Assembly (NCBI GenBank): GCA_016187515.1
Contig: JACPJN010000007.1
Span: 4,046-68,045, forward strand
Direction: 5' to 3'
DNA from: Candidatus Uhrbacteria bacterium
GTDB taxonomy: Bacteria; Patescibacteriota; Patescibacteriia; GWA2-47-26
DNA: 64,000 bases
The number at the start of each line of letters is the position of its first letter. Positions within the stretch are counted from its first letter, which is position 1. Below are positions 6,415 to 61,106 of the stretch, piece after piece. The notes beneath the pieces are model-generated. The model ran no database searches and was not told the origin of the DNA. It was given only the letters and a program-made list of their open reading frames with translations. The position numbers and the translations under genes are program-made.

Positions 6415-6529
6415 AGTCTTGTATTGTAGCACAAAATGTGATATACTGGTATCTAGTAATCGACCCATGGTGTTATTGAGTGGTTATGTTATTGGATGTT
6501 CAATACTTAATAACTTAATCACTTACTAA

Positions 6530-8704
<2,175 letters not shown>

Positions 8705-13721: not shown

Positions 13722-13851
13722 TCATTTTTTTAACTCCACTATTGTATCACCCCATGATTGATTGTCAAATATACAAATTAAATCGTATATAATGCCAAAT
13801 CCGTGGCAATCTGCGATCCGCGGCCATCTGTTACCCATCTGCGGGAATCTG

Positions 13852-14544: not shown

Positions 14545-14574
14545 ATATTTTATTATACGCTATACTGTGAAACT

Positions 14575-15447
14575 ATGAAAGTATACCTAGACATCGTCCG
14601 TCACATTTTAGAGCATGGCGAAATGAAAGAAAACCGCACGGGCGTGCGGGCGCTTGCGATTGCCGGCGCGATGTTTGAACATGACCTGGCCTCGGGCTTC
14701 CCCCTGCTGACCACCAAAAAAATGCCGTTCAAAGTTGTGGCGACTGAACTGGAATTTTTTATTAAAGGCATTACGGACAAACAGTGGCTTAAAGACCGCA
14801 AATGCCACATCTGGGACGAATGGGCCAGCCCACGCCTCGCGGCATACGGACTCGACGAGGAATCCAAGCTGCGCATGCGCAACGAGCGCGATCTCGGACC
14901 AATTTACGGATTTCAGTGGCGTCATTTCGGAACGACATATCGTGGATATGAAGAGAATTATTCTGGCCAAGGCATCGATCAATTGAAAAATGTTGTTGAA
15001 AAATTAAAAAGCAATCCAAATGACCGTCGCATGATCGTTTCGGCGTGGAATCCCCTAGCACTTGGAGAGATGGGCCTACCGCCCTGCCATTATTCATTCC
15101 AAGTTACGGTGATCAATGGCCGGTTAAATCTGCTGTGGAACCAACGCTCGGTAGATACCATGCTGGGTTTGCCTTTCAACATTGCCAGTTATGCGTTGCT
15201 TTTGCATTTACTCGCCAAAGAGTCGGGGCTTAAAGAAGGAAAACTGGTGGGATTTCTCGGCGACGTCCACATTTATGAAAACCACGTCGAGGGCGCGCGC
15301 GAGCAAATTAGCCGCGATCCAAACACCTATCCCCTGCCCACCATCCAAACCGATCCCTGGACCGGCCTTTTCAACTGGGAAGCCCCGCATACACAACTTC
15401 TCGGCTACGAAAGTTATCCAAGAATTGAATTTGCGATTGCGGTGTAA
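14575..15447 (+). CDS. thyA: thymidylate synthase (ThyA)
   Basis: Start MKVYLDIVRHILEHGEMKENRTGV; conserved active-site region WNPLALGEMGLPPCHYSFQV; the tracked ORF 13762..15447 is an artefactual 5' extension antisense to the HAD gene. Confidence 0.9.
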   Translation: MKVYLDIVRHILEHGEMKENRTGVRALAIAGAMFEHDLASGFPLLTTKKMPFKVVATELEFFIKGITDKQWLKDRKCHIWDEWASPRLAAYGLDEESKLRMRNERDLGPIYGFQWRHFGTTYRGYEENYSGQGIDQLKNVVEKLKSNPNDRRMIVSAWNPLALGEMGLPPCHYSFQVTVINGRLNLLWNQRSVDTMLGLPFNIASYALLLHLLAKESGLKEGKLVGFLGDVHIYENHVEGAREQISRDPNTYPLPTIQTDPWTGLFNWEAPHTQLLGYESYPRIEFAIAV

Positions 15448-29195: not shown

Positions 29196-32100
29196 TTAGT
29201 TTATCACGACTTGACCTTGTCCCACAATATCCTCAATTGACCGGATCAAGCGCTCTTCCGGATCAATCTGAAAACCCGTCTGAATCGTGCGCTTTACGCC
29301 GTTTTGGCTAAGCACAATGTAGACCGGGGTTGATCCTCGGGTGGACGCAAAAAACGTGCGCAGGGTCTCGAGCGTCGCGCGGTCGTGGTTTTGGAGATGG
29401 ATGAGGAGACGTTTTGATGAGGTATTAGGTACTTGGGTACTTGGGTACCTGGGGTCTTTCATAGTGTTCTTGTCTACTAATACCCTAGGATCCTGAGATC
29501 CTAATTGCCCAGCGCTCTCCGCTGTCAGCACCATCGCCCGCTCGCACACCACCCGTTTCTCCTCGCCGCCTCCGCGTCCCCACACGCATAAAAGCGCCCC
29601 GTCAGACCAGATACCCGGGTTTTCTTTGTACGTTTTCGGAAACGCGACCACCTCGCAGGAACCGGTCAAATCCTGCAGCCGTCCGACGGCCATGCGTTCT
29701 CCGTTTTTGGTGGTACGCGTTTTACATTCCGTAAGCGCTCCGGCCACGCAAAGCGGCGCTCGGTCCGGCACCTCCAGCAGCGCGGAGATCGGCGTCACTT
29801 TGCCGTCCAGCGCCTGTTTAAACTCCTCCAGCGGATGCGCGGTAACGTAAAGTCCAAGCAATTCTTTTTCCCATCGCAACTTTTCTTCACGAGCGGCCGG
29901 CGGAGCGTCTTTGATGCTCAACCGATTCACCTCCGGCAAGCCGGTAAAAAGCGTGCTCTGCTTTGACGGCTCCGCAGTCGCACCACGATGAAACGCCAGC
30001 ATGGCTTCCATATTTTCAAGCATCACCCCGCGATCGCCAAAGCAATCCATCGCGCCGGATTTGATTAAACTCTCCAGCGATTTTTTATTGAGATTCTTAT
30101 GCTGGACGCGCTTAAGAAAATCCTCCAGGTTCTCATAGGCGCCGCCTTGTTCCCGCTCCTCGATCACCGCCTCCACCACGTCCGATCCCAAATTTTTAAT
30201 CGCCAAAAGCCCAAAACGGATGGTCTGATCATCCACATAGGTAAAATCCTTATGACTCTCATTTACATCCGGCGGGAGCACTTTGATTCCCGCTTCTCGC
30301 GCGCCCATGATCACTTCCGCCAGTTTATCCGTATTTCCCGCCTCCGCGGTCAAAATCGCGGTAATAAATTCCGCCGGCCAGTGCGCTTTCATGTACGCGG
30401 TCTGATAAGCCACCATGCCATAGGAAGCGGCATGGGAATTATGCACAATAATATCGTTGGCCACAAAATTATGGGTTTCCGGAACAGTAAGATCATACGT
30501 CATTGCTTCACCCCTAGAAATAATACTTACTACTTCATCCCAATACACATCCGAGTGCGCAAACTCCGTGAGCACTTCCGAATGAAGCGCTTCGGCTATT
30601 ACCGCAACCGTTTCTCGTAAATATCCTTTTTTGGCATCATCATTACATAAAAGACGCTCCGCAATGTTATGAGTTCGCGCAAATCCTTTCAAACTCATCT
30701 CCGTTTTGATAATTTCCGATTTAATAATCGGCAACACTCCCGCTGGAATAATGTCCTTACTTCCGCGCGCGCTCCAAGCCGAGATCGCTCCATTCAACAC
30801 TGGGTGGTGCGCCACAATCTCTGAAAGCGTGGCGCGCTTTTCTCCAATAAGATATTGTCCTACGGTTTGTTCGAATATCTTAATGTTCGTATGTCGTGAT
30901 ACATGAATTGTCCATCCGGTTTTGACCGTATCGCGATACTTAAAATGCTTTTCGTGCACCGTACTAATCATTCCCAGCCGCAACAAAAGATGTTGCATGT
31001 CATAAGCAAGCAATCGCGAACTGGTCGCATAGTACAATTGCCCTTCACCCTCATCGCTATGCACGCAACCGTCCCCTTGCCACATTTTTCCCAAAAGTAC
31101 ACAAAGCTGCTCGCGATTGAGTAAAAATACGAATGTCGGGAACACTTTGCTCGTAGCCTTGCAATCGAGCAATTCCCATTCCTGTGCAAACGAACGCAAC
31201 CCGTTCGGTTGCTTTTGGTTTTGCTTTCCGACATACACGGATACCGCCGACCTTGATCTGTCGATCGTAATGCGCGCATTGCTAAATTGTTTCGCATGCG
31301 ATATAAAATCGGCAATCTCCTCTTCCGCTTTGGAATAATAGTATATTCCGTACGGATGGCAGAAATTTCCCTCAGCCAAAAGATATCCTAACGCCGCGAG
31401 TTTATAATCATCAATTGGATAAGCGCGTTTAGGCAGTGGCGCGTGACGTGCGGTTGCAATACGGTCGCCGTGCTTTAACTCTGCGAGTGTAGCCCAGCTC
31501 CCAAATTTTCTGAAAGGGTGATTTGCCGTTGCTTTTATGCGTAGACCGCGACGGGTAATGACTTCAAATATCGGCTTTACACCGTTTTGTTGTACGGCTC
31601 CTATTGGTCGCTTGTCCAAGGTAAGATCATCCTCAAGGGATAGAAGAGTAATCTTGGAATTGCTTGATCTATACAATTCCTCTACCGTCCTTCGAACGCC
31701 TGACACCGCGTCGTAAATAATAGTGTCTCCCGTAATACATTTGTTAAAACCATACGCCGCAAACGGTTCAATCAATGCCCAGATTTCCTCGGCGCGCGCT
31801 CGCACCAGCCCTTTTTTAACGCAGCCGCTTAAAAATTTCTCGCGCTGGGCCACCATTTCGCGCGGAATTTTTTTACCCATGGCTTTGCGTAATTTATCGG
31901 CTTCTTCCCAAGTATAACCCGCTAGTTCAATGGCGATCATGAGCACGTCGTCCTGATAAACTAAAATACCATAAGTACGCTCCAAAATATTCTGCAGTTG
32001 CGGCACCAAATACTGAATCAGCCGCGGATTATGCTTGCGCTTAATATATTCCGGAATGGACTCCATCGGACCCGGGCGAAAAAGCGCGACCATCGCCATG

Positions 32101-33995
32101 ATGTCGTGAATACTTGAGGGTTTGAGTTCTTTCAAATAGCGGGTCATGCCTGAACCGGACAGCTGAAATACGCCCATGGTATCCCCGCGCGAGAGCATTT
32201 CAAAAGTTTTCTTGTCTTCTGGCGGGAGCTTATCAATATCCACGGACACGCCTTTAGTTTTCTTCACGATCTGTACCGCATCGCCCAAGATGGAAAGATT
32301 GCGGATTCCCAACATATCCATCTTAACTAAGCCCGCGGCCTCCACCGCGTGCATGTCATACTGGGTAATAATATGATCGCCCTGGGCTTCTTTTTGAAGC
32401 GGCGTAAAATCCGTAAGTTTGGTGGGCGCAATGACCATGCCGGCCGCGTGTACCGAAGCGTGGCGCGCGCAACCTTCCACTTTACGCGCCAAATTCAGCA
32501 CGCGTTTCGTATTGGCATCCTCATGGTACATCTTCCCCAGCTCGGGATTTTCCTCCAACGCCCGGTCCACGGTCATGTGAAATCCTTGCGCCCCGGGCGG
32601 GATCATTTTGGAAAGTTTGTCGCCAAAGGAATATGGAAAACCCAGTACGCGCGTGACATCGCGCACGGCCGCACGCGGCAACATGGTCCCAAATGTACAG
32701 ATTTGCGCGACTTTATCGCGCCCGTATTTTTCTCGCACGTATTCAATCACCTCATCGCGGCGATTATCCGCAAAATCCACATCAATATCCGGCGGACTCG
32801 GACGCGACACGGTTAAAAATCGTTCAAATGGCAAACGCAAATCCAGAGGATTGACCGTAGTAATATCAATGAGATAAGACACGAGCGATCCCGCGGCCGA
32901 ACCGCGCGTGGTCACCACAATTCCTTGCGCGCGCGCCCATTTCACATAGTCCGACACAATTAAAAAATAAGTAGAAAAACCGGTTTTTTTGATTACCTCA
33001 AGTTCATACTCAATACGCTGAAGGACAGTCCTTTGGTCGAGTAAAGGACTGTCCTTCTTCAATCCAAACCTCTCCTGCGCCGCTTTCCACACTAACTCTT
33101 CCAAATACTCATGATGCGTCCTTCTCTCTGGTACCGGAAACTGCGGAAACGCCCATTGGTTAAGCGTAAGCTCCAGATTGCAGCGCTCGGCCACCTTTAG
33201 CGTATTTATGATAACTTCCGGATGGTCTTTCCACTGCGCCGCCACTTCCTCTGGAGATTTAAACGAGTGATCCACGCCCGTCATGTTTAACCGGCCTTTG
33301 TCCGTGACAAATTTACCTGTTTGCACGCACACCAGTACATCTTGCGCCTCGCCATCGTCGGCATGCAAATAGTGGCTGTCTACCGTGGCCACCGGCACAA
33401 TACCGAGCTCTTCGCATAATTTAAACATGCCGCGATTGACGGTTTCTTGTTCTGGAATCTCGGGGTGTTTCTGCACCTCGGCGAAAAAATTCTCTTTGCC
33501 AAAAATCTCTTGAAACTCTTGAGCAACGCGTTTTGCTTCATCGAATTGTCCGCGCGCGATCAGCCGCGGAATCTCACCGCGCAAACAACCGGAGAGCGCA
33601 ATAAGCCCTTTGCCATACGCGCGCAGGGCGGCTTTATCAATGCGCGGTTTATAATAATAACCTTCCAGATGCGCGAGCGTGGTCAGCAACATTAAATTCC
33701 GATAGCCCTCCTCATTGCGCGCGAGCAAGGTTAAGTGGTGGTAATCCTTGTCCACGCCCGCGCGCTTTTCTTCTTTTTCTCCGAGTGCCATGTAGGCCTC
33801 CATGCCAACAATCGGCTTGATTTCCTGCCTTCTACATTCTTGATAAAATTCCAACGCGCCATACATCACGCCGTGATCGGTTAAGGCAAGCGCCGGACAC
33901 CCAAACTCTTTCGCCCGCGCCACCAACTCCGGAATTTTCGGAAGACCATCAAGTAAGCTGTAATGGGAGTGGGTATGCAAGTGGACGAAGGGCAT
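29196..33995 (-). CDS. dnaE: DNA polymerase III alpha subunit containing an intein
   Basis: 1599 aa; N-terminal PHP domain MPFVHLHTHSHYSLLDG; polymerase core; the conserved FNK-SHAA motif is interrupted by an intervening sequence. Confidence 0.9.
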   Translation of the reverse strand: MPFVHLHTHSHYSLLDGLPKIPELVARAKEFGCPALALTDHGVMYGALEFYQECRRQEIKPIVGMEAYMALGEKEEKRAGVDKDYHHLTLLARNEEGYRNLMLLTTLAHLEGYYYKPRIDKAALRAYGKGLIALSGCLRGEIPRLIARGQFDEAKRVAQEFQEIFGKENFFAEVQKHPEIPEQETVNRGMFKLCEELGIVPVATVDSHYLHADDGEAQDVLVCVQTGKFVTDKGRLNMTGVDHSFKSPEEVAAQWKDHPEVIINTLKVAERCNLELTLNQWAFPQFPVPERRTHHEYLEELVWKAAQERFGLKKDSPLLDQRTVLQRIEYELEVIKKTGFSTYFLIVSDYVKWARAQGIVVTTRGSAAGSLVSYLIDITTVNPLDLRLPFERFLTVSRPSPPDIDVDFADNRRDEVIEYVREKYGRDKVAQICTFGTMLPRAAVRDVTRVLGFPYSFGDKLSKMIPPGAQGFHMTVDRALEENPELGKMYHEDANTKRVLNLARKVEGCARHASVHAAGMVIAPTKLTDFTPLQKEAQGDHIITQYDMHAVEAAGLVKMDMLGIRNLSILGDAVQIVKKTKGVSVDIDKLPPEDKKTFEMLSRGDTMGVFQLSGSGMTRYLKELKPSSIHDIMAMVALFRPGPMESIPEYIKRKHNPRLIQYLVPQLQNILERTYGILVYQDDVLMIAIELAGYTWEEADKLRKAMGKKIPREMVAQREKFLSGCVKKGLVRARAEEIWALIEPFAAYGFNKCITGDTIIYDAVSGVRRTVEELYRSSNSKITLLSLEDDLTLDKRPIGAVQQNGVKPIFEVITRRGLRIKATANHPFRKFGSWATLAELKHGDRIATARHAPLPKRAYPIDDYKLAALGYLLAEGNFCHPYGIYYYSKAEEEIADFISHAKQFSNARITIDRSRSAVSVYVGKQNQKQPNGLRSFAQEWELLDCKATSKVFPTFVFLLNREQLCVLLGKMWQGDGCVHSDEGEGQLYYATSSRLLAYDMQHLLLRLGMISTVHEKHFKYRDTVKTGWTIHVSRHTNIKIFEQTVGQYLIGEKRATLSEIVAHHPVLNGAISAWSARGSKDIIPAGVLPIIKSEIIKTEMSLKGFARTHNIAERLLCNDDAKKGYLRETVAVIAEALHSEVLTEFAHSDVYWDEVVSIISRGEAMTYDLTVPETHNFVANDIIVHNSHAASYGMVAYQTAYMKAHWPAEFITAILTAEAGNTDKLAEVIMGAREAGIKVLPPDVNESHKDFTYVDDQTIRFGLLAIKNLGSDVVEAVIEEREQGGAYENLEDFLKRVQHKNLNKKSLESLIKSGAMDCFGDRGVMLENMEAMLAFHRGATAEPSKQSTLFTGLPEVNRLSIKDAPPAAREEKLRWEKELLGLYVTAHPLEEFKQALDGKVTPISALLEVPDRAPLCVAGALTECKTRTTKNGERMAVGRLQDLTGSCEVVAFPKTYKENPGIWSDGALLCVWGRGGGEEKRVVCERAMVLTAESAGQLGSQDPRVLVDKNTMKDPRYPSTQVPNTSSKRLLIHLQNHDRATLETLRTFFASTRGSTPVYIVLSQNGVKRTIQTGFQIDPEERLIRSIEDIVGQGQVVIN
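30439..31739 (-). mobile_element. DnaE intein (~434 aa) with LAGLIDADG homing-endonuclease domain
   Basis: Begins CITGDTII right after extein AYGFNK and ends DIIVHN followed by +1 Ser (SHAASYG); LAGLIDADG-like blocks LAALGYLLAEGNF and LLAYDMQHLLLRLGM; coordinates +-1 nt. Confidence 0.8.
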
Positions 33996-41941: not shown

Positions 41942-42649
41942 CTATTTTGACTTTCTCCTTTTCTGCTTCACTTTAAAATATGCACGCGGTGATAAATCAT
42001 AAATCTCACCATCTTCCTTCTGTCGCTGCATCTGCCGCCAAACCCGTATTACGCGCGGGCTGCATTTTTTACAGTCGGCTTCAATCAGCGCGTAATATCG
42101 GTGCAAGCCAAGGTACTTTAATAAGCCGTGTAGCGCTGGTTCGGGATTGTACTTTGTAACCCACACGGAAAACTGCCACATTTGAAATCCGCTTGCTTTA
42201 AGAAGTTTCCGTAAGTGATCGCGATGCTTTCGCAACCGTTCTGGAATATCAAAAATTACCACCCGCCAGGCGCGATCCCACTTTTGTTTGCGCTGATCTT
42301 CCATGTGCTGTATAAATCGTATCCGCAGTATTTCGTACTTACCCTTGGCAGTCAAACGATACAACTGCTCCTCTCCTTCTTGCACTAACTCGATGTAATG
42401 TTCCTGCTTTAAATAGTGGATACGCCGCATCAGCCGCCTATATTCTCGTTTTCTGCGCGCGCGTTCACGTTCTATATAGGCCACTGGTCCAAAGCCGCCT
42501 AAACTCCAGCGTACATGCGATGGCACGTGGATACCTCCCCCCTTTAGATTTGTAGCCTGAAGTTCGAGCAATGCGATTTGTAACTCTTGCAGTTGTAATC
42601 GAGTACTCATAGATATGAGACCGCTGAACAATTGATTATTCGTGTTCAT
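41942..42649 (-). CDS. PaaX-family transcriptional regulator (winged HTH + PaaX_C-like domain)
   Basis: 235 aa; YRLTAKGKYEIL resembles PaaX wHTH FYSLTxKG; WDRAWRVVIFDIPERLRKHRDHLRKLLKASGFQMWQFSVWV matches PaaX_C WDGxW...LxxxGFGxLxxGVW; family match is inference from motif recall, no search run. Confidence 0.55.
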   Translation of the reverse strand: MNTNNQLFSGLISMSTRLQLQELQIALLELQATNLKGGGIHVPSHVRWSLGGFGPVAYIERERARRKREYRRLMRRIHYLKQEHYIELVQEGEEQLYRLTAKGKYEILRIRFIQHMEDQRKQKWDRAWRVVIFDIPERLRKHRDHLRKLLKASGFQMWQFSVWVTKYNPEPALHGLLKYLGLHRYYALIEADCKKCSPRVIRVWRQMQRQKEDGEIYDLSPRAYFKVKQKRRKSK

Positions 42650-46913: not shown

Positions 46914-47525
46914 CTACTGCGCCGCGGCGACCGGCGCGGTCAGGTCGCGATGCTGGACGTGATACAGGCGCCAGAGCGTAAGGATCGTGAGCACTCCTTC
47001 GACGACGACAACCACTCCCCACACCGTCCTACCCAGCATCAAAATACCAAAGAGCGTAACCGCCCCCACTCCGAAGATCGCAATCGCCCACCCGTACGGT
47101 ACACCCAACAACGCATCTGCGGAGGGGGCGAGGACGAGGGCGAAGACGAAGGCGACAACAACGAAGACGTAGATGGCGGTACCGATGGCACCGACGGTGT
47201 CGACGGCGGCGATGGTGGCGGTGGTGGTGGCGGTGGTTTCGAGGGCGAGGGCGATGGTGGCGGCGAAGATGGCGACGATGGTGGTGGCGGTGGTGGCGAA
47301 GATGGCTGCGGCGGCGCGGAAGGCGACAACGACGACGGCGAAGGCGGTGGCGATGATGGCGGAGGCGGCGGTGGCCTCCTCCTGACTCGCATTTGCCAGA
47401 AGAGCGATGTGGTACGCTCCTGCCGCTACCAGGAGCCCGCTGATTGTGAAAAGAACGATTTTCTTCATCGTTATACCCTGCTTTCTTTTGTTTTGGGTTT
47501 GGGAACGATAATCCTTATATACCAC
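46914..47525 (-). CDS. low-complexity Ala/Thr/Val-rich polytopic membrane protein (hypothetical)
   Basis: Signal/TM MKKIVLFTISGLLVAAGAY; body encoded by (GGY/GCC)n simple-sequence DNA 47160-47400; TTGACA-N17-TATATA promoter just upstream (47516-47544, minus strand); other frames also open so frame choice rests on promoter and N-terminal signal. Confidence 0.4.
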   Translation of the reverse strand: MVYKDYRSQTQNKRKQGITMKKIVLFTISGLLVAAGAYHIALLANASQEEATAASAIIATAFAVVVVAFRAAAAIFATTATTIVAIFAATIALALETTATTTATIAAVDTVGAIGTAIYVFVVVAFVFALVLAPSADALLGVPYGWAIAIFGVGAVTLFGILMLGRTVWGVVVVVEGVLTILTLWRLYHVQHRDLTAPVAAAQ

Positions 47526-47564
47526 ACTTTCGACATATTGTCAAGTTTGGGGTACAATATGATG

Positions 47565-47642
47565 TGTACGAATTACGAATCATCGTACGAATACAACGAA
47601 TTCGTAATATTCGTGCAACATTCGTTGATTCGTACACAAATA
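47565..47642. repeat. TACGAAT palindromic element forming the htpX leader
   Basis: tgtacgaattacgaat...cattcgttgattcgtacacaaat then ATG; terminal inverted repeats TGTACGAAT/ATTCGTACA. Confidence 0.7.
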
Positions 47643-48532
47643 TGTACTCCCAAATCACCTCCAATAAACGCAAAACCTGGCTGCTCATCATAATTTTCCT
47701 CGCCGTGGTGCTGGGGATTGGGTATTTGTATGACTATCTTTACGGCTATGGATCGGGTGGGCTGATTTTTGCCGCAGTGATTGCACTGGTTATGGCGCTT
47801 ACCGGCTACTACTCTGGCGATAAGCTGGCGCTTGCCGTCTCCGGCGCAAAGCCCGTAACCCGCGAACAAAACGCTTATCTTTGGCGCCTGGTAGAAAATC
47901 TTTGCATTTCTCAAGGTCTGCCTATGCCGCGGCTACACATTATTCAAGATAGCGCCATCAACGCGTTTGCCACTGGCCGGGATCCCAAACATGCTTCGGT
48001 AGCGGTAACCACCGGCGCGCTTGAAAAACTGGAAAACGAAGAACTGGAAGGCGTGCTCGCTCACGAACTTTCACACGTAAAAAATTATGACATCCGGGTC
48101 ATGACGATTGTGATTGTGCTGGTTGGCATTGTGGCGCTGGTTTCCGACTGGATGCTGCGCATGCATGTGTTTGGTTTAGGCGGACATCGTGGCGGCCGTG
48201 ATCGCGGCGTACACCCGCTCTTTCTGGTGGTCGGCATCATTCTTATGGTACTTGCTCCGCTGATCGCCCAGCTTATCAAACTCGCGGTCTCGCGCCGCCG
48301 CGAATATCTGGCCGATGCTTCCGGCGCGCTGATGACGCGCTATCCGGAAGGGCTGGCGCGCGCACTTCAAAAAATCGGCGCGCAAAAACAGCCAATGCTT
48401 CGCGCCAATGAAGCCACCGCGCACCTTTATATTGCCAACCCTTTTGGAAGCACACGCAAATGGCTTACCCAGGCCTTCTCGACCCACCCGCCAATTGAAG
48501 AACGCGTAAAAATTTTAAGACAAATGGCTTGA
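47643..48532 (+). CDS. htpX: M48-family zinc metalloprotease HtpX
   Basis: Start MYSQITSNKRKTWLL; HELSHV HExxH; TMs; ATG directly after TACGAAT palindromic element. Confidence 0.85.
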
Positions 48533-48533
48533 T

Positions 48534-49487
48534 ATGGCCGACGTAAGTAAGACCAAGGGTGCTCCGGGTGAGCCGGGAAAAAATGTAAAAAAAATCGGCG
48601 AAATTAAAATTACGGTTCCCCACCCCCCGGCCGGACTATCCCCACAAACGTCCAGTCCTGGTACAATGGAAAGCGGCCCCCCACCCCCAGAACCGCCCGC
48701 GCCCCAAAAACCCCCAGGCCAGCCCGGCCAAGGCGCTCGGCCGCCAGTACAGCCAGTTCAGCCCCTACCGCCGCCTCAAGGTCCCCGAGAAGGCCAAGGG
48801 CCTCCGGATAGCCAAGAGCAATCCGGTCCTGGTTCAACGCGTTCCCCAGGACCCCAACCCGGCCCAGCCCCGCAAGACCAACTCGAAATGCTGGCCGAAC
48901 TGGCGAGGCAAGAAGACGCCCAAAAAGAGAAATTGGGACAGCAAATCCAGAAGGACGAAAGCGCTGCCGGGCGCGCCCATCTTATCGAGCTCATTGCCCA
49001 GACCATTGTTAATGGTTTGGAATTCATTGATCGCCTGCTGAAACTGCTGGGGAATATCGCCAAACCCATCCCGGTCCTGGGTTGGATTATACAGATCCTT
49101 GTCTGGATCGCGCGCGGTATCGTAATTTTACTGAAGTTCATTCCCAACGGGGTGGCGAAGGGGGAACGCAAAGATGAAGATCGCCTGCGCAAACGCGCCT
49201 TAAAGTTGAGAAAAGAAGCGGGAATTAAATCTCCGCCCCCTCCGGATAATCCGCACGGGACCACCGAGATTCCCGCCGCAGGATTAATCGAGGAGGACGT
49301 GCGTTTCCCGGTGCTCAACCTGGTTCGTCCGGCCCCGGCTCCCCAACCCATCACCTTGCTGCCCGGACTTTTGAAAATAAACCCGCCGCTTTCCGGAATT
49401 TTAAAAATATTCATTATCGCCGGAGGGGCCGCGCTGCTGCTTATAAGTTTAGGCGGGCTGGTTACTTTCATGCAATCTCAATCCTAA
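48534..49487 (+). CDS. Pro-rich membrane protein (hypothetical)
   Basis: 317 aa; ~130-aa Pro/Gln/Gly-rich N-terminus, then TM helices. Confidence 0.45.
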   Translation: MADVSKTKGAPGEPGKNVKKIGEIKITVPHPPAGLSPQTSSPGTMESGPPPPEPPAPQKPPGQPGQGARPPVQPVQPLPPPQGPREGQGPPDSQEQSGPGSTRSPGPQPGPAPQDQLEMLAELARQEDAQKEKLGQQIQKDESAAGRAHLIELIAQTIVNGLEFIDRLLKLLGNIAKPIPVLGWIIQILVWIARGIVILLKFIPNGVAKGERKDEDRLRKRALKLRKEAGIKSPPPPDNPHGTTEIPAAGLIEEDVRFPVLNLVRPAPAPQPITLLPGLLKINPPLSGILKIFIIAGGAALLLISLGGLVTFMQSQS

Positions 49488-49499
49488 CCTCCAAACTGT

Positions 49500-50723
49500 A
49501 TGAGTCAACGTCTTAAACGCATCCTCGCGATTGCCGGATTCGTGGTGATCATCCTGTTAATCGGATTTCTGCTTTGGCGGGTGTTTTATCGCCCAATTTT
49601 TACGCCTGCCCCGCCCGGCGCTGCCCCGCTGGTCTTGCCGGAGGATAGCAAAGGATTGCCGACCGCGCCTCCGGCCCGCCCGCGCGCTCCGCTTGCTCCC
49701 GGCGTCCCGGGTACTCAAGAGGCGCCATCCCGGATTGCCGCCGGCGGAGTAACCGCGGTACAAACTCTAGCGGATACCGCGGTGCTAGCCCCCGCGCTGG
49801 CCCCGCAAGGAGAAGCCATTCAATACTACAATCGCGAAGATGGTAAATTCTATCGCGTTTCCGTAGACGGCCGCATAGAGGCCATTTCCGACAAGGTCTT
49901 TTTTAACGTCTCCAAAGTAATCTGGGCGCCCGACCGGAAAAAATCCATTTTGGAATATCCGGATGGCGCGAACATTCTTTACGATTTTGAAACCAAACGC
50001 CAAGTCACCTTGCCGCCGCATTGGGAATCCTTCAGTTTTTCAACCTCTTCGGATCAAATCGCGTTTCTATCTTTAGGCCTGGATCGCGATCACCGCTGGC
50101 TCGGGATCTCTTCCGCCGACGGCTCGCAAAGTAAGCCAATTGAACCCTTGGGCGACAACGCTGCCAAAGTTCAGGTAGAATGGTCGCCCAACAATCAGAT
50201 GATCGCGCTTTCCTCAACCGGACTGACCGCCGCGATCGGTGAGCAGGAAATTCTGCCCATTGGTCTGCATGGCGAGAATTTCCATTCCCTCTTGGTCAAT
50301 GGGATTGGATTCCGCGCGCGCTGGTCGCCCGACGGCGAGCGGATTCTTTATAGCGTCAGTTCCTTCCAAAATGATTGGAAGCCCGAGCTCTGGATTGTCC
50401 GCGGCGCCCCGAGTCAGATCGGCGCCGGGAAAATTCCGGTTGGCTTAAATACCTGGGCGGACAAATGCGCCTTTGGAGGCGCTCAAACCGTTTACTGCGC
50501 GGTTCCAAAAAACCTGCCGCGCGGGGCGGGGTTGTATCCTTTGGCCGCGGAAAACGCGCCGGATGAGCTTTGGAAAATCAATCTTGTAAGCGGCGCTCGC
50601 GAAAAAATCGCGATTCCCACCCAAGATATTACCATGCAATCCCTGGTTGTAACCGGGCAAGAAAACGCGCTTTACTTTACCGACCAGGTCTCCGGCCGAC
50701 TGTACAAAATTGATTTAAAGTAA
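49500..50723 (+). CDS. membrane-anchored beta-propeller (TolB/PD40-like) protein
   Basis: N-terminal TM; repeated WSPD/WAPD blades (VEWSPNNQM, ARWSPDGER, VIWAPDRKK). Confidence 0.55.
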   Translation: MSQRLKRILAIAGFVVIILLIGFLLWRVFYRPIFTPAPPGAAPLVLPEDSKGLPTAPPARPRAPLAPGVPGTQEAPSRIAAGGVTAVQTLADTAVLAPALAPQGEAIQYYNREDGKFYRVSVDGRIEAISDKVFFNVSKVIWAPDRKKSILEYPDGANILYDFETKRQVTLPPHWESFSFSTSSDQIAFLSLGLDRDHRWLGISSADGSQSKPIEPLGDNAAKVQVEWSPNNQMIALSSTGLTAAIGEQEILPIGLHGENFHSLLVNGIGFRARWSPDGERILYSVSSFQNDWKPELWIVRGAPSQIGAGKIPVGLNTWADKCAFGGAQTVYCAVPKNLPRGAGLYPLAAENAPDELWKINLVSGAREKIAIPTQDITMQSLVVTGQENALYFTDQVSGRLYKIDLK

Positions 50724-50812
50724 ATCAAGTAAAGCAGGTAAATCAGGTAAATCAAGCTGGCAAAAACTTGATTTACTTGTCTCGCTTGTCTCGCTCAATT
50801 TATTCAATCGCC

Positions 50813-51481
50813 ATGCGTACCACCCCCTACATCCTGATCGTACTTTTGGCGCTTTTGGCTGCCGCGTTTGTCGGATTTTTGGCCTACTATTCTTATCGCC
50901 CATTTACACCCGAAGCGCCGCCAGCCCCGTTGGCCGCGGAACAAATTACAGCCACCGCCGCGCCTGCCAAACCTTTTATCGCCGGCACTGATCCGGTCTA
51001 CGGCGATCAATCCGCGGAAATCACGATTGTGGAGTTTGGAGATTTTATGTGTCCGGCTTGCGCCGAGGTAAACGCTACGCTCTACGCTGTACTGAACGAA
51101 TTTAAAGGAAAGGTTCGGCTGGTTTGGAAAGATCTGCCCAATACGTCCCGCCATTTTCTTGCCCTAGATGCGGCCAAAGCCGCTCGCTGCGCGCAAGAGC
51201 AAGGCGCGTTTTGGCCATATCACGATTTGCTCCTGGCCCGCCAGAGCGAACTAAATGCCGAACTGCTCCCGAGGATCGCCCAGCAATTGCAGCTTAAGGT
51301 GGGGGACTTTTCCGCCTGCCTGGCCTCGGACCGATCGGTTGGTCTTATTGAGCGCTCCAAAAACGAGGCGCTTCTGCTCCAAGTTGACGCCACGCCATAC
51401 TTTTTTATCGGCGAGCGACGGATTTCAGGAGCAGTAAGCCCGGAAACCCTTCGACAAATCCTGGATGCAAATCTCAAATAG
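50813..51481 (+). CDS. DsbA/BdbD-like thiol:disulfide oxidoreductase, membrane-anchored
   Basis: N-terminal TM; CPAC active site (FGDFMCPACAEV); thioredoxin fold length. Confidence 0.7.
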   Translation: MRTTPYILIVLLALLAAAFVGFLAYYSYRPFTPEAPPAPLAAEQITATAAPAKPFIAGTDPVYGDQSAEITIVEFGDFMCPACAEVNATLYAVLNEFKGKVRLVWKDLPNTSRHFLALDAAKAARCAQEQGAFWPYHDLLLARQSELNAELLPRIAQQLQLKVGDFSACLASDRSVGLIERSKNEALLLQVDATPYFFIGERRISGAVSPETLRQILDANLK

Positions 51482-51482
51482 T

Positions 51483-52790
51483 ATGAGGCGTCTAATCGTC
51501 TTCTCAATTTTTAATCTCCTGCTAATGGTACCGGCAACAGTACACGCAGTGGGCTCGTGCGCCACATTGCAAAATGCGCTCATTGAACAATGGAGAGCAG
51601 TATGTGCCGTCGGTCTTTATGAGGGCAGCACGCTTAATTCAAATTTCTGCGACAACATTACCGATCCTGATCGCCATCTCAATATGTGTCGCAGAGATGA
51701 TGTAAATAGACGGTGTGTGGCGCGCGATTCAGCTATTGTAAGCTTGTGTAATTATGGTCGTAGCCAAGGAATCTGTGCAGGCCTTTGCGCTCAAGATATA
51801 ACTATTCCAGAAACAGTCCCCCCGCCCGGACCCACCGAACCGGAGTTGGCCGCCGAAGGAGTCATCCTCCCGCGCCTGCAGATTGATATTCCCACCCTGC
51901 AACCGTTTACTCGTCCGCGCACCTATCAAGAAGGCGAACAAGTATTTCTAGACATTGGTTTTATTGGCCAATATATTGTCGGGCTTTACCAATATCTGGT
52001 GGGCATTGTCGGGATTTTAGCCGGAGTCATCTATACCTGGGCCGGATTCCGCTGGCTGACCTCCGGCGGCGATCCGGAAAAAATCGGCGATGCCAAGAAA
52101 AAAATCGCCGGAGCCACCATGGGACTCGTGCTGGTACTCGGCTCCTATCTCGTGCTTTATCTGGTAAACCCCGCATTAACGGTCTTTGAACCGCTGCGAA
52201 TTGAGTATGTAAAACGGATTCCACTGGAGACCCCGGAAGAATCGGACAACTCCTTTGATGCCGCGGCCGCGACGTTATGCCCAGGCGCCAATGAGTTCCA
52301 ACCCGTACCGCGCACCGCGACTAACCTCGGATTGCGAACCGGGAAAGATCTGCTTATACCGGAGGCCGGACAAAAACTGCTGGAGGCCGCGCGCATTGCG
52401 GATGAGCGCGGCTATGGCCTGTGGGTCTGCTCGGCTGGGCGCACTCTTCAACAACAACAAGCACTTTGGGATAGCGCCTTACGGCAGCACGGCAGTGAAG
52501 AGGTGGCTCGCCGATATGTGGCGCAACCGCGCTGCGGCGCGCCGCATTTAACCGGCCGTACCGTGGATATAACCTTATGGACCAAAGATCTTGCCCAACC
52601 AGTAACCGGCGACGGCTGCACTAGAAGAAATGTCAGCGCCGCAAATGCCGCGCAAACCACGGCACAGCAGCGCGTACTTCAAGAAATAATGTTTACCGCC
52701 GGATGGCGCCGCTACTGTGGCGAATGGTGGCACTTTGAGTTTGGCACTCCCCGTGCGCAGCGTGCCGGAAGCAGCCCCTGCGCAAATTAA
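51483..52790 (+). CDS. fusion: Cys-rich secreted N-domain + two-TM pilin-like segment + C-terminal peptidase M15 (VanY-like D,D-carboxypeptidase) domain
   Basis: Signal peptide MRRLIVFSIFNLLLMVPATVHA; two TM helices YIVGLYQYLVGIVGILAGVIY...ATMGLVLVLGSYLVLYLV around a charged loop (VirB2/TrbC-like topology, inference); LAS/M15 motifs H-x6-D (PHLTGRTVDI) and EWWHFE. Confidence 0.55.
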   Translation: MRRLIVFSIFNLLLMVPATVHAVGSCATLQNALIEQWRAVCAVGLYEGSTLNSNFCDNITDPDRHLNMCRRDDVNRRCVARDSAIVSLCNYGRSQGICAGLCAQDITIPETVPPPGPTEPELAAEGVILPRLQIDIPTLQPFTRPRTYQEGEQVFLDIGFIGQYIVGLYQYLVGIVGILAGVIYTWAGFRWLTSGGDPEKIGDAKKKIAGATMGLVLVLGSYLVLYLVNPALTVFEPLRIEYVKRIPLETPEESDNSFDAAAATLCPGANEFQPVPRTATNLGLRTGKDLLIPEAGQKLLEAARIADERGYGLWVCSAGRTLQQQQALWDSALRQHGSEEVARRYVAQPRCGAPHLTGRTVDITLWTKDLAQPVTGDGCTRRNVSAANAAQTTAQQRVLQEIMFTAGWRRYCGEWWHFEFGTPRAQRAGSSPCAN

Positions 52791-52961
52791 AAAACCCCGG
52801 CGCGGAGGTCATGGACCGTTTTGGTCGCTCCGGCCAGGGGTACTGCTGGTTCACGCGCACTTACCGCGCGCGTTTTCTTCGGCTTGCTCGAAGGCAAGCC
52901 GGCGCAACCTATCCGCGAAGATCCGCGTACACGTTGCGTTATGGTGAGCTAGCGAGGTCCG

Positions 52962-53249
52962 CTAGCTGAAGAGGGACGGCCTTCCCGCGGGCCGCGCCAG
53001 GGCCGGGTACCGGCCGCTGCGCAGCGCCGAGCCGAGCCACGGACGCCCGGTGGCGCGCCGGTAGGCCTCGCCGGCCTCCAAGCCGCCCCGCGTGAGGCGC
53101 TCGTAGATCCCCACCTCACTGCCCGTCATGCCGGAGCAGACGGCCTTGTCGCGATGCACGACCGTTCCGTCCGGCAACTGGAGCTGATTGGCCGGCTCCA
53201 GCCGCAGGTGGCAGCCGGGGCAGCCCTCCTCGCCATTTCCCCTGATCAT
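52962..53249 (-). CDS. small Cys-containing protein in ~70 % GC island (hypothetical)
   Basis: Start MIRGNGEEGCPGCHL after purine-rich SD AAGGAAGAGGAAAGGAAAG; local GC far above window average. Confidence 0.35.
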   Translation of the reverse strand: MIRGNGEEGCPGCHLRLEPANQLQLPDGTVVHRDKAVCSGMTGSEVGIYERLTRGGLEAGEAYRRATGRPWLGSALRSGRYPALARPAGRPSLFS

Positions 53250-53556
53250 GGTCTTTCCTTTCCTCTTCCTTTGTTTGACTGCTTTCCCCCTTCTCACGCG
53301 GCAAGCGCAGTCCGGGCTTTTCCGCGTGTTTTTTGCGCGCCTTTTTTTGAATTAGCCAAAGCCCTCCTTTGGTTTTGCTGCGGCGCGAGCGTGAAATTGA
53401 CTCTCCCGAATACTGAAGTTAACAGGGATGGCAGCCCTGCACCCCTAAAGTATTCAATCAATTTCCGTGCTCACGATCTCCCGCGCCAAGCGTGAAAAAG
53501 CGCGAATACGGAAAAGTTGAACCTATTCTACAATAGACGATTAAAATTGTCAATAC

Positions 53557-55953
53557 TTACTCCAAATGCGCCTTTCCTTCTTTTTGCATAATCTCGGCCC
53601 GTAATTGTGGATAACTGCGCAACTCCGGATCCTGGGCAAGCAACTCCTGTGCGGCCGCTTTGGCCGCTTTGGCAATCTCGACATCCGCAAAAGAGGCAAT
53701 TTTGAACTCCGGGAACCCGGACTGGGCGGTTCCGCTATAGATTTCCCCTGGGCCGCGCAGTGCTAAGTCGCGCTCGGCCAGCTCAAAACCGTTGTCACAC
53801 TCTAAAAACGCCTTAAGGCGTGCCGGACCCCTCCTCACCTCCCCTTCTCCTCCCGAGGCGGATCCGCCTTGGGCGGAAAAAGGGGAGGAAATTTCCCCCC
53901 CTGCCCGAGGGGGGGTTCGGGGGGGTGGGAGATCATCCACCATCAGCAAACAATACGATTGCGCCTCTCCGCGCCCGACTCTACCCCTAAATTGATGCAG
54001 TTGTGCCAAACCAAAATTCTGTACCCCTTCGATCACCATGACGGTAGCATTCGGAACATCAATGCCCACCTCAATCACGGGAGTGGCCACCAGGATATCA
54101 ATCCTGCTCATTTTGTCATTCTGAGCCGGAGGCGAAGAATCCCGTCCACCACGAGAATCACGGGATCCCTCGCTTGCGCTCGGGATGACAGAAGCGAATT
54201 CCTCCATCACTTTCTCGCGTTCTTTGCTCTTCATCCGGCCATGCAAAAGTCCTACGTGCAAATCTGGGAATATGTCATTTTTCAAATGCTCAAACACTTC
54301 GGTGGCGGCTTTGACTCCTAGGGTGTCGGAGGGATCAATAATCGGACAAGTCCAAAATACCTGATGGCCGGCGGCAACTTGCCCGCGCACAAAGTCATGA
54401 GCTTGTTCGCGGGACCAGACCGCATCCTCACCCTGCCCCCCTCCCCTAACCCCTCCCACCAAGGGAGGGGGATTTGTTTTTACTCCCTCTCCCCTTGTGG
54501 GAGAGGGCGGGGGTGAGGGGTGGTCCGCCACCAAAATCGTCTCAATCCTCTGCCTCCCTTTCGGCATTTCTTTGAGCACCGAGATATCCAAATCGCCATA
54601 AAACACGAGCGCTAAACTGCGCGGAATTGGCGTGGCGGTCAGCGTGAGCAAATGCGGCATCAGACCGTCGCCGCGTTTTTCTTTAAGCGCCGCGCGCTGG
54701 GAAACCCCAAACCGATGCTGTTCATCCACAACCGCGAGCACCAGATTTTTAAACTTCACGCCGCCCTGGATTAGCGCGTGGGTGCCAACGATTACATCCG
54801 CCTCGATCAGTTGCTTCTTTCTTTTCTCCTCTCCGATGCGCAAAGCAATCGTAATTCCCTGCGGTTCCAGAAATTTTGAAAATGTCTTAAAATGTTGGCG
54901 CGCCAAAATCTCGGTCGGCGCCATAATCGCCACTTGCCCCCTCGACGCTAGACCCTCGACGCTAGACCCTAAAACGGCATTGAGCGCCGCAATCGCCACC
55001 ACCACGGTTTTCCCCGATCCCACCTCTCCTTCCAGGAGACGATTCATAGGGTGAACGAATTGAACTGAACTACCGTTGTTTAGTTGTTGAGTTGTTCGGT
55101 TGTTCAGTTCTTTGCGGCCACTCATATCGCAAAGAATCTCCCACGCGGCCTTGCGCTGATCATCAGTCAACTGGAACGGAAGTCCTTCCACGAACTTTTT
55201 AGTCACCGCTTCGTGAAATTCTACCTCGGGCGCCGAAATTTTTTTCAGCTCGCGCTTGAGGGACACCGCGAATAATTGCAAACGCAGTAATTCATCAAAC
55301 TTCAGCCGCCGGCGGGCCTCCTCCAGCTTGGCTTCATCCGGCGGGAAATGTATCGCGGTAAGCGCCTGCGGAAGGTGGGTCAACCCATAGCGATCCTTAA
55401 TCGCAACCGGAAGCGGATCCGGCACGCTTCGCGCAAGCGGAAGCGCCTGACGCACTAAAAACCGGATCTGCTTTTGCGATAACTTTTCAGTGGAGGGATA
55501 GACCGGCACCAGCCGCGCCGCATGCGTCGCGGGGCGTTTACTCACCTTCTCATACATCGGCGAGGAAAGATAAAGTCCGCTCCCTTCATCTTTCGCGTAC
55601 CCGACGAGATAAACTTCATCGCCGGATTTAAACATTTTCGCGACCCACGGCTGATTAAACCAAACCACGCGTACCGACCCGGTCCCGTCCCCCACCACGG
55701 CCTGGGTAAGCAGCTTGCGTTTCCACTTGCTTCGCGCGCTTTCAATCAGCTCCACTCTCCCGCGCACCACCACCCGCTCCCCGGGACGCACCGCTTTTAT
55801 TTCCGTCAGGCGAGAAAGATCGTCCCAGCGCGAGGGAAAATAAAAAAGAAGGTCCTGGGCGGTAAGGACCCCAAGGTGACGTAACTGGGAGGCAACTTTC
55901 GCGCCAATATGGGACAGTTCCGTGACAGGACTTGATAATATAGCCCGGATCAT
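53557..55953 (-). CDS. recG: ATP-dependent DNA helicase RecG with multiple in-frame repeat insertions
   Basis: 798 aa; wedge/OB N-domain, helicase motifs (GSGKT, DEQHRFG, TATPIPR), C-terminal domain; inserts from REP elements at 53828-53932 and 54428-54522, a second hairpin element at 54100-54190, and tandem repeats at 55060-55110. Confidence 0.9.
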   Translation of the reverse strand: MIRAILSSPVTELSHIGAKVASQLRHLGVLTAQDLLFYFPSRWDDLSRLTEIKAVRPGERVVVRGRVELIESARSKWKRKLLTQAVVGDGTGSVRVVWFNQPWVAKMFKSGDEVYLVGYAKDEGSGLYLSSPMYEKVSKRPATHAARLVPVYPSTEKLSQKQIRFLVRQALPLARSVPDPLPVAIKDRYGLTHLPQALTAIHFPPDEAKLEEARRRLKFDELLRLQLFAVSLKRELKKISAPEVEFHEAVTKKFVEGLPFQLTDDQRKAAWEILCDMSGRKELNNRTTQQLNNGSSVQFVHPMNRLLEGEVGSGKTVVVAIAALNAVLGSSVEGLASRGQVAIMAPTEILARQHFKTFSKFLEPQGITIALRIGEEKRKKQLIEADVIVGTHALIQGGVKFKNLVLAVVDEQHRFGVSQRAALKEKRGDGLMPHLLTLTATPIPRSLALVFYGDLDISVLKEMPKGRQRIETILVADHPSPPPSPTRGEGVKTNPPPLVGGVRGGGQGEDAVWSREQAHDFVRGQVAAGHQVFWTCPIIDPSDTLGVKAATEVFEHLKNDIFPDLHVGLLHGRMKSKEREKVMEEFASVIPSASEGSRDSRGGRDSSPPAQNDKMSRIDILVATPVIEVGIDVPNATVMVIEGVQNFGLAQLHQFRGRVGRGEAQSYCLLMVDDLPPPRTPPRAGGEISSPFSAQGGSASGGEGEVRRGPARLKAFLECDNGFELAERDLALRGPGEIYSGTAQSGFPEFKIASFADVEIAKAAKAAAQELLAQDPELRSYPQLRAEIMQKEGKAHLE

Positions 55954-60628: not shown

Positions 60629-60668
60629 CCTAATAACTCAATAACTTAATAACTCGGTACTCTCAATT

Positions 60669-61106
60669 GGTGGAGGTGGAGGGAGTTGAACCCTCGTCTA
60701 GTAAATCCTTCGCATTCAACACTACAAGCTTAGCTTTCTTTGGATTTTTGGAACGCGCCTGAAAGAAAGCAAACAGCGCGCTCCTAGTCTTTGCCAATCT
60801 CAAGCATGTCGGGTAAGACCTCCGTCATGCTCCATCCTCTAATTACAGGAGTGCCCCGCTAGAGGAATCGCGGGACTCCTGACACACTGCTTAAAAAGCG
60901 GCGTGTGCAAAGGCCGGAGCTCTGAAAGTGCTGAAAGCATTTGTCAGAGTATTCCAACCCATAGATACGTTCTTGGCATGTATCAATTTCCCTGACCGTT
61001 TTATCCCGACCTAAGTCGGGATCCCGACTTTACGTCGGGACGAGTGGACAGAGTTGCTCGGCTTGCGTCAAAGTGCGTTGAACTCCTATCGATGCCCGTC
61101 ACCCCC
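60669..61106 (-). ncRNA. ssrA: tmRNA (SsrA)
   Basis: minus strand 5' GGGGGUGACGGG... and 3' ...GAGGGUUCAACUCCCUCCACCUCCACCA: tRNA-like acceptor with G3.U70, T-arm GGGUUCAACUCCC, encoded CCA; 5' end preceded by a perfect hairpin; smpB adjacent; tag-peptide frame not assigned. Confidence 0.7.

Follow-up and report, generated by a model that had tools for sequence, protein, structure and literature searches.

A pilin-like membrane hairpin joined to an M15-type peptidase domain in Candidatus Uhrbacteria, and a patescibacterial family with differing C-terminal domains on the same hairpin

Results

The locus and the fusion gene

We examined a 64-kb stretch of a Candidatus Uhrbacteria chromosome (contig JACPJN010000007.1; the whole of this stretch is hereafter called the window). 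Between 47642 and 52790 it carries a run of five co-oriented + strand open reading frames (ORFs), which encode an HtpX-type protease, a Pro-rich membrane protein, a PD40-like protein, a DsbA-like oxidoreductase and, last in the run, a protein in which a pilin-like pair of transmembrane (TM) helices is joined to an M15-type peptidase domain (Table 1). This last protein, which we refer to as the fusion, is the subject of the present work. Each of the five ORFs has a family or homologue match, except that no family match was found for the Pro-rich protein, and with homologues across many metagenomes we read them as real genes rather than chance frames.

The fusion gene has two candidate starts. 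The dsbA stop lies 1 nt before the ATG at 51483, and the ATG at 51465 would overlap dsbA. The start at 51483, which NCBI annotates and which gives a protein of 435 amino acids (aa) rather than the 436 aa of our first-pass annotation, is the likely one. The longer ORF of 441 aa, whose numbering is used throughout, is 100% identical to an NCBI protein that is encoded on a contig of 318 kb and labelled 'D-alanyl-D-alanine carboxypeptidase family protein'.

Table 1. Features of the gene run and parts of the fusion protein (positions in the window; residues numbered on the 441-aa ORF)
Feature	Position	Strand	Basis
Promoter-like site TCGACA-17-TACAAT, 5' of htpX	47530..47558	+	consensus scan, 10/12 positions match; pattern match only
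htpX, M48 membrane zinc protease, first gene of the run	47642..48532	+	Pfam M48, 110.8 bits
Pro-rich membrane protein, 317 aa	48534..49487	+	hydrophobic segments 175-207 and 284-314 (C-terminal half)
PD40-like protein, 407 aa, membrane-anchored	49500..50723	+	one N-terminal TM segment; weak PD40 match
DsbA-like thiol:disulfide oxidoreductase, membrane-anchored	50768/50813-51481	+	Thioredoxin_4, 1e-29; CPAC; N-terminal TM segment
Fusion gene, 441 aa from ATG 51465 or 435 aa from ATG 51483	to 52790	+	ORF and NCBI annotation
Signal peptide, residues 7-28, end VHA|VG	51483..51548	+	hydrophobic window 8-33; model helix 4-21
Variable Cys-rich N-terminal ectodomain, residues 29-110, 8 Cys	51549..51794	+	pLDDT 52-78
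Conserved VirB2-like core, residues 134-250	51864..52214	+	PF18895 match; AlphaFold2 hairpin pLDDT >90
Acidic flexible linker, residues 251-289	52215..52331	+	pLDDT 55-59
M15 (LAS) zinc peptidase domain, residues 290-441	52332..52787	+	Pfam M15 and VanY; active-site residues
Terminator-like hairpin 3' of the fusion gene	52854..52870	+	pattern scan; pattern match only
recG, convergent synteny marker of the ABY1-type backbone	53557..55953	-	tblastn synteny; gene calls in relatives

The first-pass annotation had described a Cys-rich secreted N-domain, two TM segments around a short charged loop and a C-terminal M15 domain, and all of these parts were found. The cysteines of the N-domain fall at residues 32, 47, 62, 75, 84, 95, 104 and 108, and a Pro-rich linker follows them. 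The core then runs, in order, through a P-x-L-x-I-x-I-P motif with a beta-hairpin (134-165), TM1 (166-198), a loop (199-212), TM2 (213-240) ending in N-P-x-L, and a short strand; the hydrophobic helices, at residues 170-196 and 213-241, enclose the charged loop TSGGDPEKIGDAKKK. Six more cysteines lie in the linker and M15 domain, which brings the total to 14. An AlphaFold2 (AF2) model built on an alignment of 121 same-architecture proteins reached a mean predicted local distance difference test score (pLDDT) of 82, with the hairpin and the enzyme domain mostly above 90 (about 90 for the enzyme domain), and placed the helices at 166-198 and 204-234 with pLDDT >90. Hydropathy and charge suggest that the N-domain, the M15 domain and all 14 cysteines are extracytoplasmic, with the lysine-rich loop in the cytoplasm. 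The fusion would then be a Sec-exported membrane protein held by two antiparallel TM helices, with both globular domains facing outward.

The C-terminal domain is an M15-type peptidase domain

Residues 299-427 matched Peptidase_M15 (PF01427) at 40.8 bits (cut-off 27) and VanY (PF02557) at 27.2 bits (cut-off 25). Read from the sequence, the H-x6-D motif is H361-LTGRTV-D368 and the E-x-x-H motif is E420-WW-H423, and the catalytic set comprises R326 (52440-52442), H361 (52545-52547), D368 (52566-52568), E420 (52722-52724) and H423 (52731-52733). Among the 121 same-architecture sequences R326, H361 and D368 are invariant, while E420, W422, H423 and C439 are kept in at least 90%. A profile search of the PDB was led by LdcB LD-carboxypeptidases (4mph, 1.3e-8), with VanXYc and VanX also matched. 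When the predicted structure was compared with the PDB by Foldseek, VanX (1r44) was matched at E=3e-6 with a target TM-score of 0.54, and VanXYc, LdcB, VanY and the Ply500 endolysin were found as well, all at probability 1.00. The M15/LAS assignment proposed at first pass is thus borne out by profiles, motifs and predicted fold alike, and on this basis we regard the domain as an M15/LAS zinc peptidase whose catalytic residues are intact. Orthology to a named enzyme fails in the NCBIfam equivalog models, with DdpX at 56.6 against a cut-off of 176 bits, VanXY at 31.4 against 250 and VanX at 26.6 against 320.

The membrane hairpin belongs with PF18895 pilin-like proteins

We next considered the two-TM segment, which had been called pilin-like from its topology. 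This description is supported by a profile match: residues 173-225 matched the T4SS_pilin family (PF18895; T4SS, type IV secretion system) at 37.2 bits, above the gathering cut-off of 26.6. Sub-threshold matches were obtained to the NCBIfam Mbov_0395 pilin-like conjugal transfer model (E=4e-6) and, in some relatives, to TrbC/VirB2 (PF04956). The hairpin is also 34% identical (E=2e-16) to a pilin from a related locus (L026) that is encoded close to VirB4, three genes downstream of it and past a 200-aa and a 172-aa protein.

Among the 121 M15 members, pairs of sequences are on average 38% identical in TM1, 37% in the loop and 47% in TM2, compared with 31% in the M15 domain and 16% in the N-domain, so that the hairpin is better conserved than the enzyme it carries. 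Near-invariant positions are Y170, G194, G202, G220, Y228, L231, N235, P236 and L238. The near-invariant Gly, Tyr, Asn and Pro residues of the helices argue for specific protein-protein packing over mere anchoring.

The fusion does not have the dimensions of a mature pilin. Solved mature conjugative pilins are small, with TrhA having 74 aa (PMC11722321), and the 441-aa fusion, with its N-domain of ~100 residues and its enzyme of ~150, is not a small hairpin-only protein. A further reading would make the fusion a polyprotein precursor, cut at one or both edges of the hairpin to free a small pilin and N- and C-terminal ectodomains; the terminal processing of TrbC and TrhA pilins is a precedent. 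The hairpin is flanked by conserved P-x-L-x-I-x-I-P and N-P-x-L motifs and by flexible low-confidence linkers, VirB2-type pilins are documented to undergo C-terminal trimming (PMC11722321), and a membrane protease gene, htpX, is found in the same run. Known trimming takes off a few residues and not whole domains, however, and neither a dedicated peptidase, of the TraF type or another, nor htpX is co-conserved with the fusion. The precursor scheme is purely speculative and we consider it very improbable.

The hairpin family carries different C-terminal domains

To see how the architecture is distributed, a HMMER scan of 1.84 billion cluster representatives was used, which gave 16,615 matches at E <=0.001, of which 90 were at <=1e-30. 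We classified 158 proteins, made up of the protein-search hits and the best 150 of the HMMER scan, with region-specific hidden Markov models (HMMs). The combination of hairpin and M15 domain was present in 121 of the 158, always in the same order. The remaining 37 combine the hairpin with other content, and 36 of these match PF18895. Among the 37, Pfam identified C-terminal domains of the SLT (7 proteins), Peptidase_C39_2 (4), Amidase_2 (2), SLT_3, 3D, NlpC/P60, M23 and Amidase_5 types (1 each). The papain-like Peptidase_C39_2 is not an established wall hydrolase. The family spans Uhrbacteria, Falkowbacteria, Kerfeldbacteria and Magasanikbacteria, lineages that we take to belong to GTDB class ABY1.

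Tandem chains of two to six hairpins per polypeptide occur in six of the 37 (P0100, P0157, P0092, P0097, P0069 and P0094), and a protein combining a pilin with an M15_4 domain was found inside a pilin array. The longest chain, P0100, has six PF18895-like hairpins in 552 aa, and all six polypeptides can be described as concatenated 'pilins'.

The proteins nearest to the fusion by N-domain and hairpin (42-59% identity, and 55-59% for the closest) are P0015, which has a 3D domain, P0017 and P0022, which have Peptidase_C39_2, and P0011, which has SLT; none has M15. The Cys-rich N-domain is common to P0015, P0017 and P0022 and is absent from another family member, P0003. Similarity to the nearest relatives ends at residues 258-276 of the fusion, at the flexible linker. 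The genes for P0011 and P0022 sit directly downstream of dsbA, which is the position that the fusion gene occupies in the window. Because SLT and C39_2 versions are found at the same locus, and because similarity breaks at the linker, we conclude that the C-terminal hydrolase is exchanged as a cassette while the hairpin core stays constant.

This modularity brings to mind a displayed weapon or feeding tool, in which the hairpin would co-polymerise with pilin paralogues or otherwise be displayed at the surface, and the hydrolase, carried on the outside of a T4SS pilus or at its tip, would attack the wall of the bacterium that serves these presumed epibionts as host. Interchangeable hydrolases on a constant module, variable N-domains and arrays all recall polymorphic effector systems. 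Solved conjugative pili have the loop of each subunit turned to the lumen, with both termini together at the opposite end (PMC11722321), from which outward-facing terminal fusions may be deduced, and pilin arrays are essential for the epibiotic growth of Southlakia (PMC10633639; PMC12857230). On the other hand, terminal domains as large as these (130 and 190 residues) would be difficult to fit into a VirB2-type filament, unless the fusion were a minor subunit of rare occurrence. There is also no evident immunity-like gene, it is not proven that Uhrbacteria associate with hosts, and the hairpin alone found no structural match to pilins in Foldseek. We therefore hold a weapon of this kind to be unlikely, though a serious contender.

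A dsbA-fusion pair on a conserved chromosomal backbone

We next asked which of the genes in the run accompany the fusion in other genomes. Nine same-architecture sequences were used to locate the locus in a scan of one genome per species, which yielded 23 loci from Kerfeldbacteria, Falkowbacteria, Magasanikbacteria, metagenome-assembled genomes (MAGs) of the 'Patescibacteria group' and 'uncultured Gammaproteobacteria', the last of which we take to be mislabelled MAGs. Of the 22 informative loci, 20 have a co-oriented dsbA gene upstream of the fusion gene, within ~6 kb. The two genes often abut or overlap, and in Uhrbacteria-type loci dsbA abuts the fusion gene directly. The suggestion that these two genes belong together is therefore upheld. 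Of the two outcomes that would have overturned the first-pass reading, a two-TM segment without pilin-like features in profile searches and a lack of co-conservation, neither was obtained.

Three types of locus could be distinguished. In Uhrbacteria-type loci the PD40-like gene, dsbA and the fusion gene follow one another in that order, RadA usually comes next, and recG is convergent. In three genomes (L023, L026 and L028) genes for a PrgI-like protein, a VirB4 N-terminal part and VirB4 (P-loop_TraG, 1e-28) directly precede the PD40-DsbA-fusion trio on the same strand, and between VirB4 and PD40 are found a 200-aa protein, a small membrane protein and a pilin of 372-442 aa with a Cys-rich C-domain. 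A further locus, L001, has an intein-containing VirB4-like gene ~10 kb from the fusion locus. Falkowbacteria-type loci have the order DsbA, POR-gamma, ferredoxin, POR-alpha, pilin, POR-beta, fusion. Array-type loci (L012, L018 and L030) have three to five large hairpin proteins after dsbA.

Two observations made in passing concern these loci. In the Falkowbacteria-type loci L011, L015, L017, L019-L021, L024 and L025 (at ~5700-7700 in each) a large PF18895 pilin gene interrupts a 2-oxoacid:ferredoxin oxidoreductase operon, where it separates the alpha-subunit gene from the beta-subunit gene, an odd interleaving that is conserved. The C-terminal 132 residues of VirB4 in L001 (16082-16480, - strand) are 75-94% identical over the 120 clusters listed, far above the identities seen among pilin-hydrolase proteins.

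The other genes of the run are less constant companions. The htpX product scores 343.9 bits against the NCBIfam HtpX model, slightly below the cut-off of 355, with an alignment beginning at residue 27. The gene itself stands as first annotated, and its ATG is at 47642 and not at 47643 as given before. Genes for htpX or lemA are close by in the close relatives L001 and L029 only. For the Pro-rich protein there was no Pfam or NCBIfam family match and no significant BLAST match among the genes of 33 related loci (none better than E=0.2); it is fast-evolving.

The PD40-like protein of the window reaches 17.2 bits (E=0.005) against PD40, under the cut-off of 20.9, while its homologue P0163 reaches 30.7 bits. 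It belongs to a very large patescibacterial family of more than 1075 homologues, several with PD40- or Tricorn-type Pfam matches, which makes a beta-propeller fold plausible. A TolB identity, also raised at first pass, was rejected, as TIGR02800 gave 20 bits against a cut-off of 343; those parts of the window that were scanned contain neither tol nor pal genes. PD40-like genes also occur without a fusion gene. In L035 the order is type IV pilus cluster, PD40, DsbA, RadA and recG, and in L034 and L036 the type IV pilus cluster is followed by PD40 and ComF. In all three (L034, L035 and L036; 1-8242) the PD40-like gene is divergent from the pilus cluster, which encodes PilM, PilB, PilC and an N_methyl pilin. 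This distribution suggests that the PD40-like family belongs to a competence or pilus neighbourhood.

The DsbA-like protein matches Thioredoxin_4 at 104.3 bits and DSBA at 49 bits (8e-13), and the CxxC motif is kept in 23 of 26 members of its family. Its true start is likely M16, at 50813.

Could the five genes nevertheless form one dedicated envelope or appendage module, as first proposed? They share one orientation and lie close together; a promoter-like site precedes htpX, a terminator-like hairpin after the fusion gene is the probable end of the transcription unit, and the PD40-DsbA-fusion part is conserved in Uhrbacteria-type relatives. Against this, related loci hold no homologue of the Pro-rich protein, clpB or other genes separate htpX from the rest in relatives, and the PD40-like family greatly exceeds the fusion family in size and is found without it. 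What survives of the proposal is thus the dsbA-fusion core, with the PD40-like gene in Uhrbacteria-type relatives, and htpX and the Pro-rich gene drop out of it. As a single five-gene unit the module is largely contradicted by synteny and seems to us improbable, and we prefer a dsbA and fusion core on a conserved backbone. That backbone, PD40-DsbA-RadA-RecG, is a chromosomal arrangement that takes up pilin-hydrolase genes and sometimes T4SS genes. In agreement with this, T4SS loci of ABY1 commonly hold comF, recG and radA (PMC12102498). At the window locus radA, present in the backbone of relatives, is missing. The PD40-like gene, htpX and the Pro-rich gene are accordingly regarded as neighbours through chromosomal synteny and not as demonstrated partners.

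The companion idea of a surface-appendage module draws support from the relatives in which PrgI-like, VirB4 and pilin genes stand directly before the trio, and finds no T4SS gene in the window; since there is none, the idea rests on those relatives. When the VirB4 C-terminus of the nearest relative was used as a query, the 120 best matches were mostly short fragments and included none from the contig of this genome.

The same neighbourhoods bear on a more conservative explanation, namely that the fusion is a housekeeping enzyme, a membrane-tethered stem-peptide carboxypeptidase resembling LdcB or VanY that acts on the cell's own wall, with the pilin-derived hairpin an inherited anchor that has no link to a T4SS. 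The closest solved relatives of the M15 domain are LD- and DD-carboxypeptidases, the NCBI label points to a D-alanyl-D-alanine carboxypeptidase, and the gene has a stable position among housekeeping genes, with no T4SS genes in the window or in Falkowbacteria-type loci. It would be unusual, however, for a passive anchor to be more conserved than the enzyme domain and to have invariant Gly, Tyr, Asn and Pro positions; the replacement of M15 by SLT or a papain-like peptidase at the same locus is hard to square with one fixed reaction; and the PD40-DsbA-fusion trio adjoins VirB4 clusters in three genomes. On balance the housekeeping account strikes us as unlikely, if far from negligible.

Other features of the window

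The remaining genes of the window are of the housekeeping kind and include gyrB, thyA, gatB, thrS, pheST, an intein-containing dnaE, recG, infC, pyk and tmRNA. Neither the fusion, the PD40-like protein, the Pro-rich protein nor a small ORF next to recG had a match in PHROGs, and a prophage endolysin or holin origin of the fusion was rejected on the strength of the housekeeping context and of this result. The small ORF (52962-53297, - strand), located between the fusion gene and recG, is 59% identical (E=1e-29) to L006 2363-2677 (- strand) and has a CPGC motif and no family match.

Several further features were noted. The DNA polymerase III alpha gene (29196-33995, - strand) contains an intein with a LAGLIDADG homing-endonuclease domain, and the VirB4-like gene of L001 (16082 to the end, - strand; 1300 aa) likewise bears an intein. 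The tmRNA (60668-61106, - strand) has an unusually long predicted tag peptide, AKNVSMGWNTLTNAFSTFRAPAFAHAAF. The thymidylate synthase ORF (13762-15447, + strand) has an N-terminal extension of ~270 residues without a Pfam match, which may reflect a mis-set TTG start or a fused domain. Between lemA and htpX lies a gene for a 203-aa Ala/Thr-rich multi-TM protein with no family match (46914-47525, - strand), and a low-complexity Gly/Asp-rich shadow ORF runs on the strand opposite to it. Finally, a 235-aa protein (41942-42649, - strand) has a PaaX-type central Cas2-like domain, with a weak match to CRISPR_Cas2.

Discussion

Relationship to known systems

The fusion combines parts that are each familiar from elsewhere: PF18895 pilins of Patescibacteria (PMC12102498, PMC10633639), M15 peptidases and T4SS-associated wall hydrolases were all known. 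New relative to the literature that we searched are the covalent pilin-hydrolase fusion itself, how abundant it is, the exchange of hydrolases at a fixed junction and the linkage to dsbA.

With PF18895 pilins (Quinonero-Coronel et al. 2025, PMC12102498; the Southlakia epibionticum array, PMC10633639) the fusion shares a signal peptide, two hydrophobic helices around a short charged loop and an above-cut-off Pfam match; homologous hairpins adjoin VirB4 in relatives, and paralogue arrays are found in both. It differs from VirB2/TrbC-type pilins in its length of 435-441 aa with globular ectodomains at both ends, in a conserved extramembrane beta element, in lying outside any T4SS cluster in the window, and in that no structural match to solved pilins was found.

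VirB1-like hydrolases such as PrgK of pCF10 and TraG of pIP501 (cited via PMC12102498) are membrane-tethered, extracytoplasmic and modular, and the same can be said of the fusion from its predicted topology. The domain types overlap as well (SLT, NlpC/P60-like or papain-like, and M23 within the fusion family), and the fusion gene is in line with VirB4 in three relatives. The anchor of the fusion, unlike theirs, is a VirB2-like hairpin and not a single TM helix. CwlT of ICEBs1 and TcpG of pCW3 are further VirB1-like wall hydrolases. The window fusion carries M15 and not SLT or CHAP, with SLT at the same locus in the relative that encodes P0011, and we know of no VirB1-like protein for which an M15 catalytic domain has been described. 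We claim no sequence homology to VirB1, TrsG or CD419.

As for the enzyme, the M15B and M15D peptidases LdcB (4mph, 4ox3, 4ox5), VanY (5hnm, 5zhf), VanXYc/g (4mur, 4f78) and VanX/DdpX (1r44) share its catalytic residues, fold and Pfam matches. Against these, the fusion falls far under the equivalog cut-offs, has additional conserved cysteines (C357, C385, C418 and C439) and has the attached hairpin.

FlgJ, in which a flagellar rod-cap domain is joined to a muramidase, offers a parallel, and in some lineages its hydrolase is split off or swapped. The shared logic would be that of an envelope-machine component fused to a wall hydrolase that clears its path. The proteins are unrelated and the machines differ, and the comparison is intended as an analogy only.

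A proposed role at the T4SS-like machinery

VirB2-like pilins are widespread in Patescibacteria, and most genomes that have them are without VirB1 (PMC12102498). The reading that we favour, to which we would give a probability of about 0.45, is that the wall hydrolase is docked by its VirB2-like hairpin at the T4SS or pilus machinery of Patescibacteria and stands in there for VirB1. According to this proposal the hairpin would not be a passive anchor but would dock the enzyme into or beside a VirB4-driven T4SS-like or pilus assembly platform. The peptidase, on its flexible linker of ~35 residues, would remodel the cell's own wall locally so that the apparatus or pilus can pass, and the tethered enzyme would in this way supply a function of the VirB1, PrgK or CwlT type. 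The membrane-anchored DsbA encoded upstream, with its CPAC motif, may oxidise the 14 extracytoplasmic cysteines.

Several observations weigh against such a role. The closest characterised M15 enzymes (LdcB, VanY and VanX) trim stem peptides and are not known to open the wall. Neither T4SS genes (VirB4, VirB6, VirD4) nor a second pilin-like gene were found in the 64-kb window, and Falkowbacteria-type loci, which lie among leuS, rnhA, recJ, lepA and murJ, have no VirB4 within 8 kb on either side. A PDB sequence search with the hairpin gave no match, and Foldseek with a hairpin-only AF2 model (pLDDT 91) returned generic helical hairpins from the PDB (E >0.6) with no conjugative pilin in the top 50; as a two-helix hairpin is structurally information-poor, we count this outcome neither for nor against pilin identity. 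In addition, no pilus has been shown for any PF18895 protein (PMC12857230).

A bolder alternative would make the PF18895 hairpin a polymerising or pilus-incorporating module on which interchangeable peptidoglycan cutters (M15, SLT, amidase, 3D and papain-like) are mounted, as part of a T4SS-derived pilus or surface structure, to breach the wall of a host. In a variant of this scheme, suggested by the recG/radA/comF neighbourhood, the wall breached would be the cell's own, for a DNA-uptake T4SS resembling ComB. We think such a pilus-mounted cutter rather unlikely. If true, a pilus-displayed, modular lytic armoury would explain the essential part that the T4SS and the pilin arrays play in epibiosis.

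Implications

A T4SS-like system and arrays of VirB2-like pilins are essential in the only genetically tractable patescibacterium (PMC10633639, PMC11665869, PMC12857230). A 2025 census scored PF18895 matches simply as 'VirB2' (PMC12102498), and in those of its supplements that we examined VanY, Peptidase_M15, PF02557 and PF01427 do not occur. Our analysis indicates that a large subset of PF18895 'pilins' is covalently fused to peptidoglycan hydrolases, and the hairpin fusion corrects the database label of a 'plain' D-Ala-D-Ala carboxypeptidase. The fusions tie this hairpin family physically to cell-wall cleavage, supply a candidate for the missing wall-remodelling function in Patescibacteria, and offer soluble, assayable ectodomains with which a role in the apparatus may be tested.

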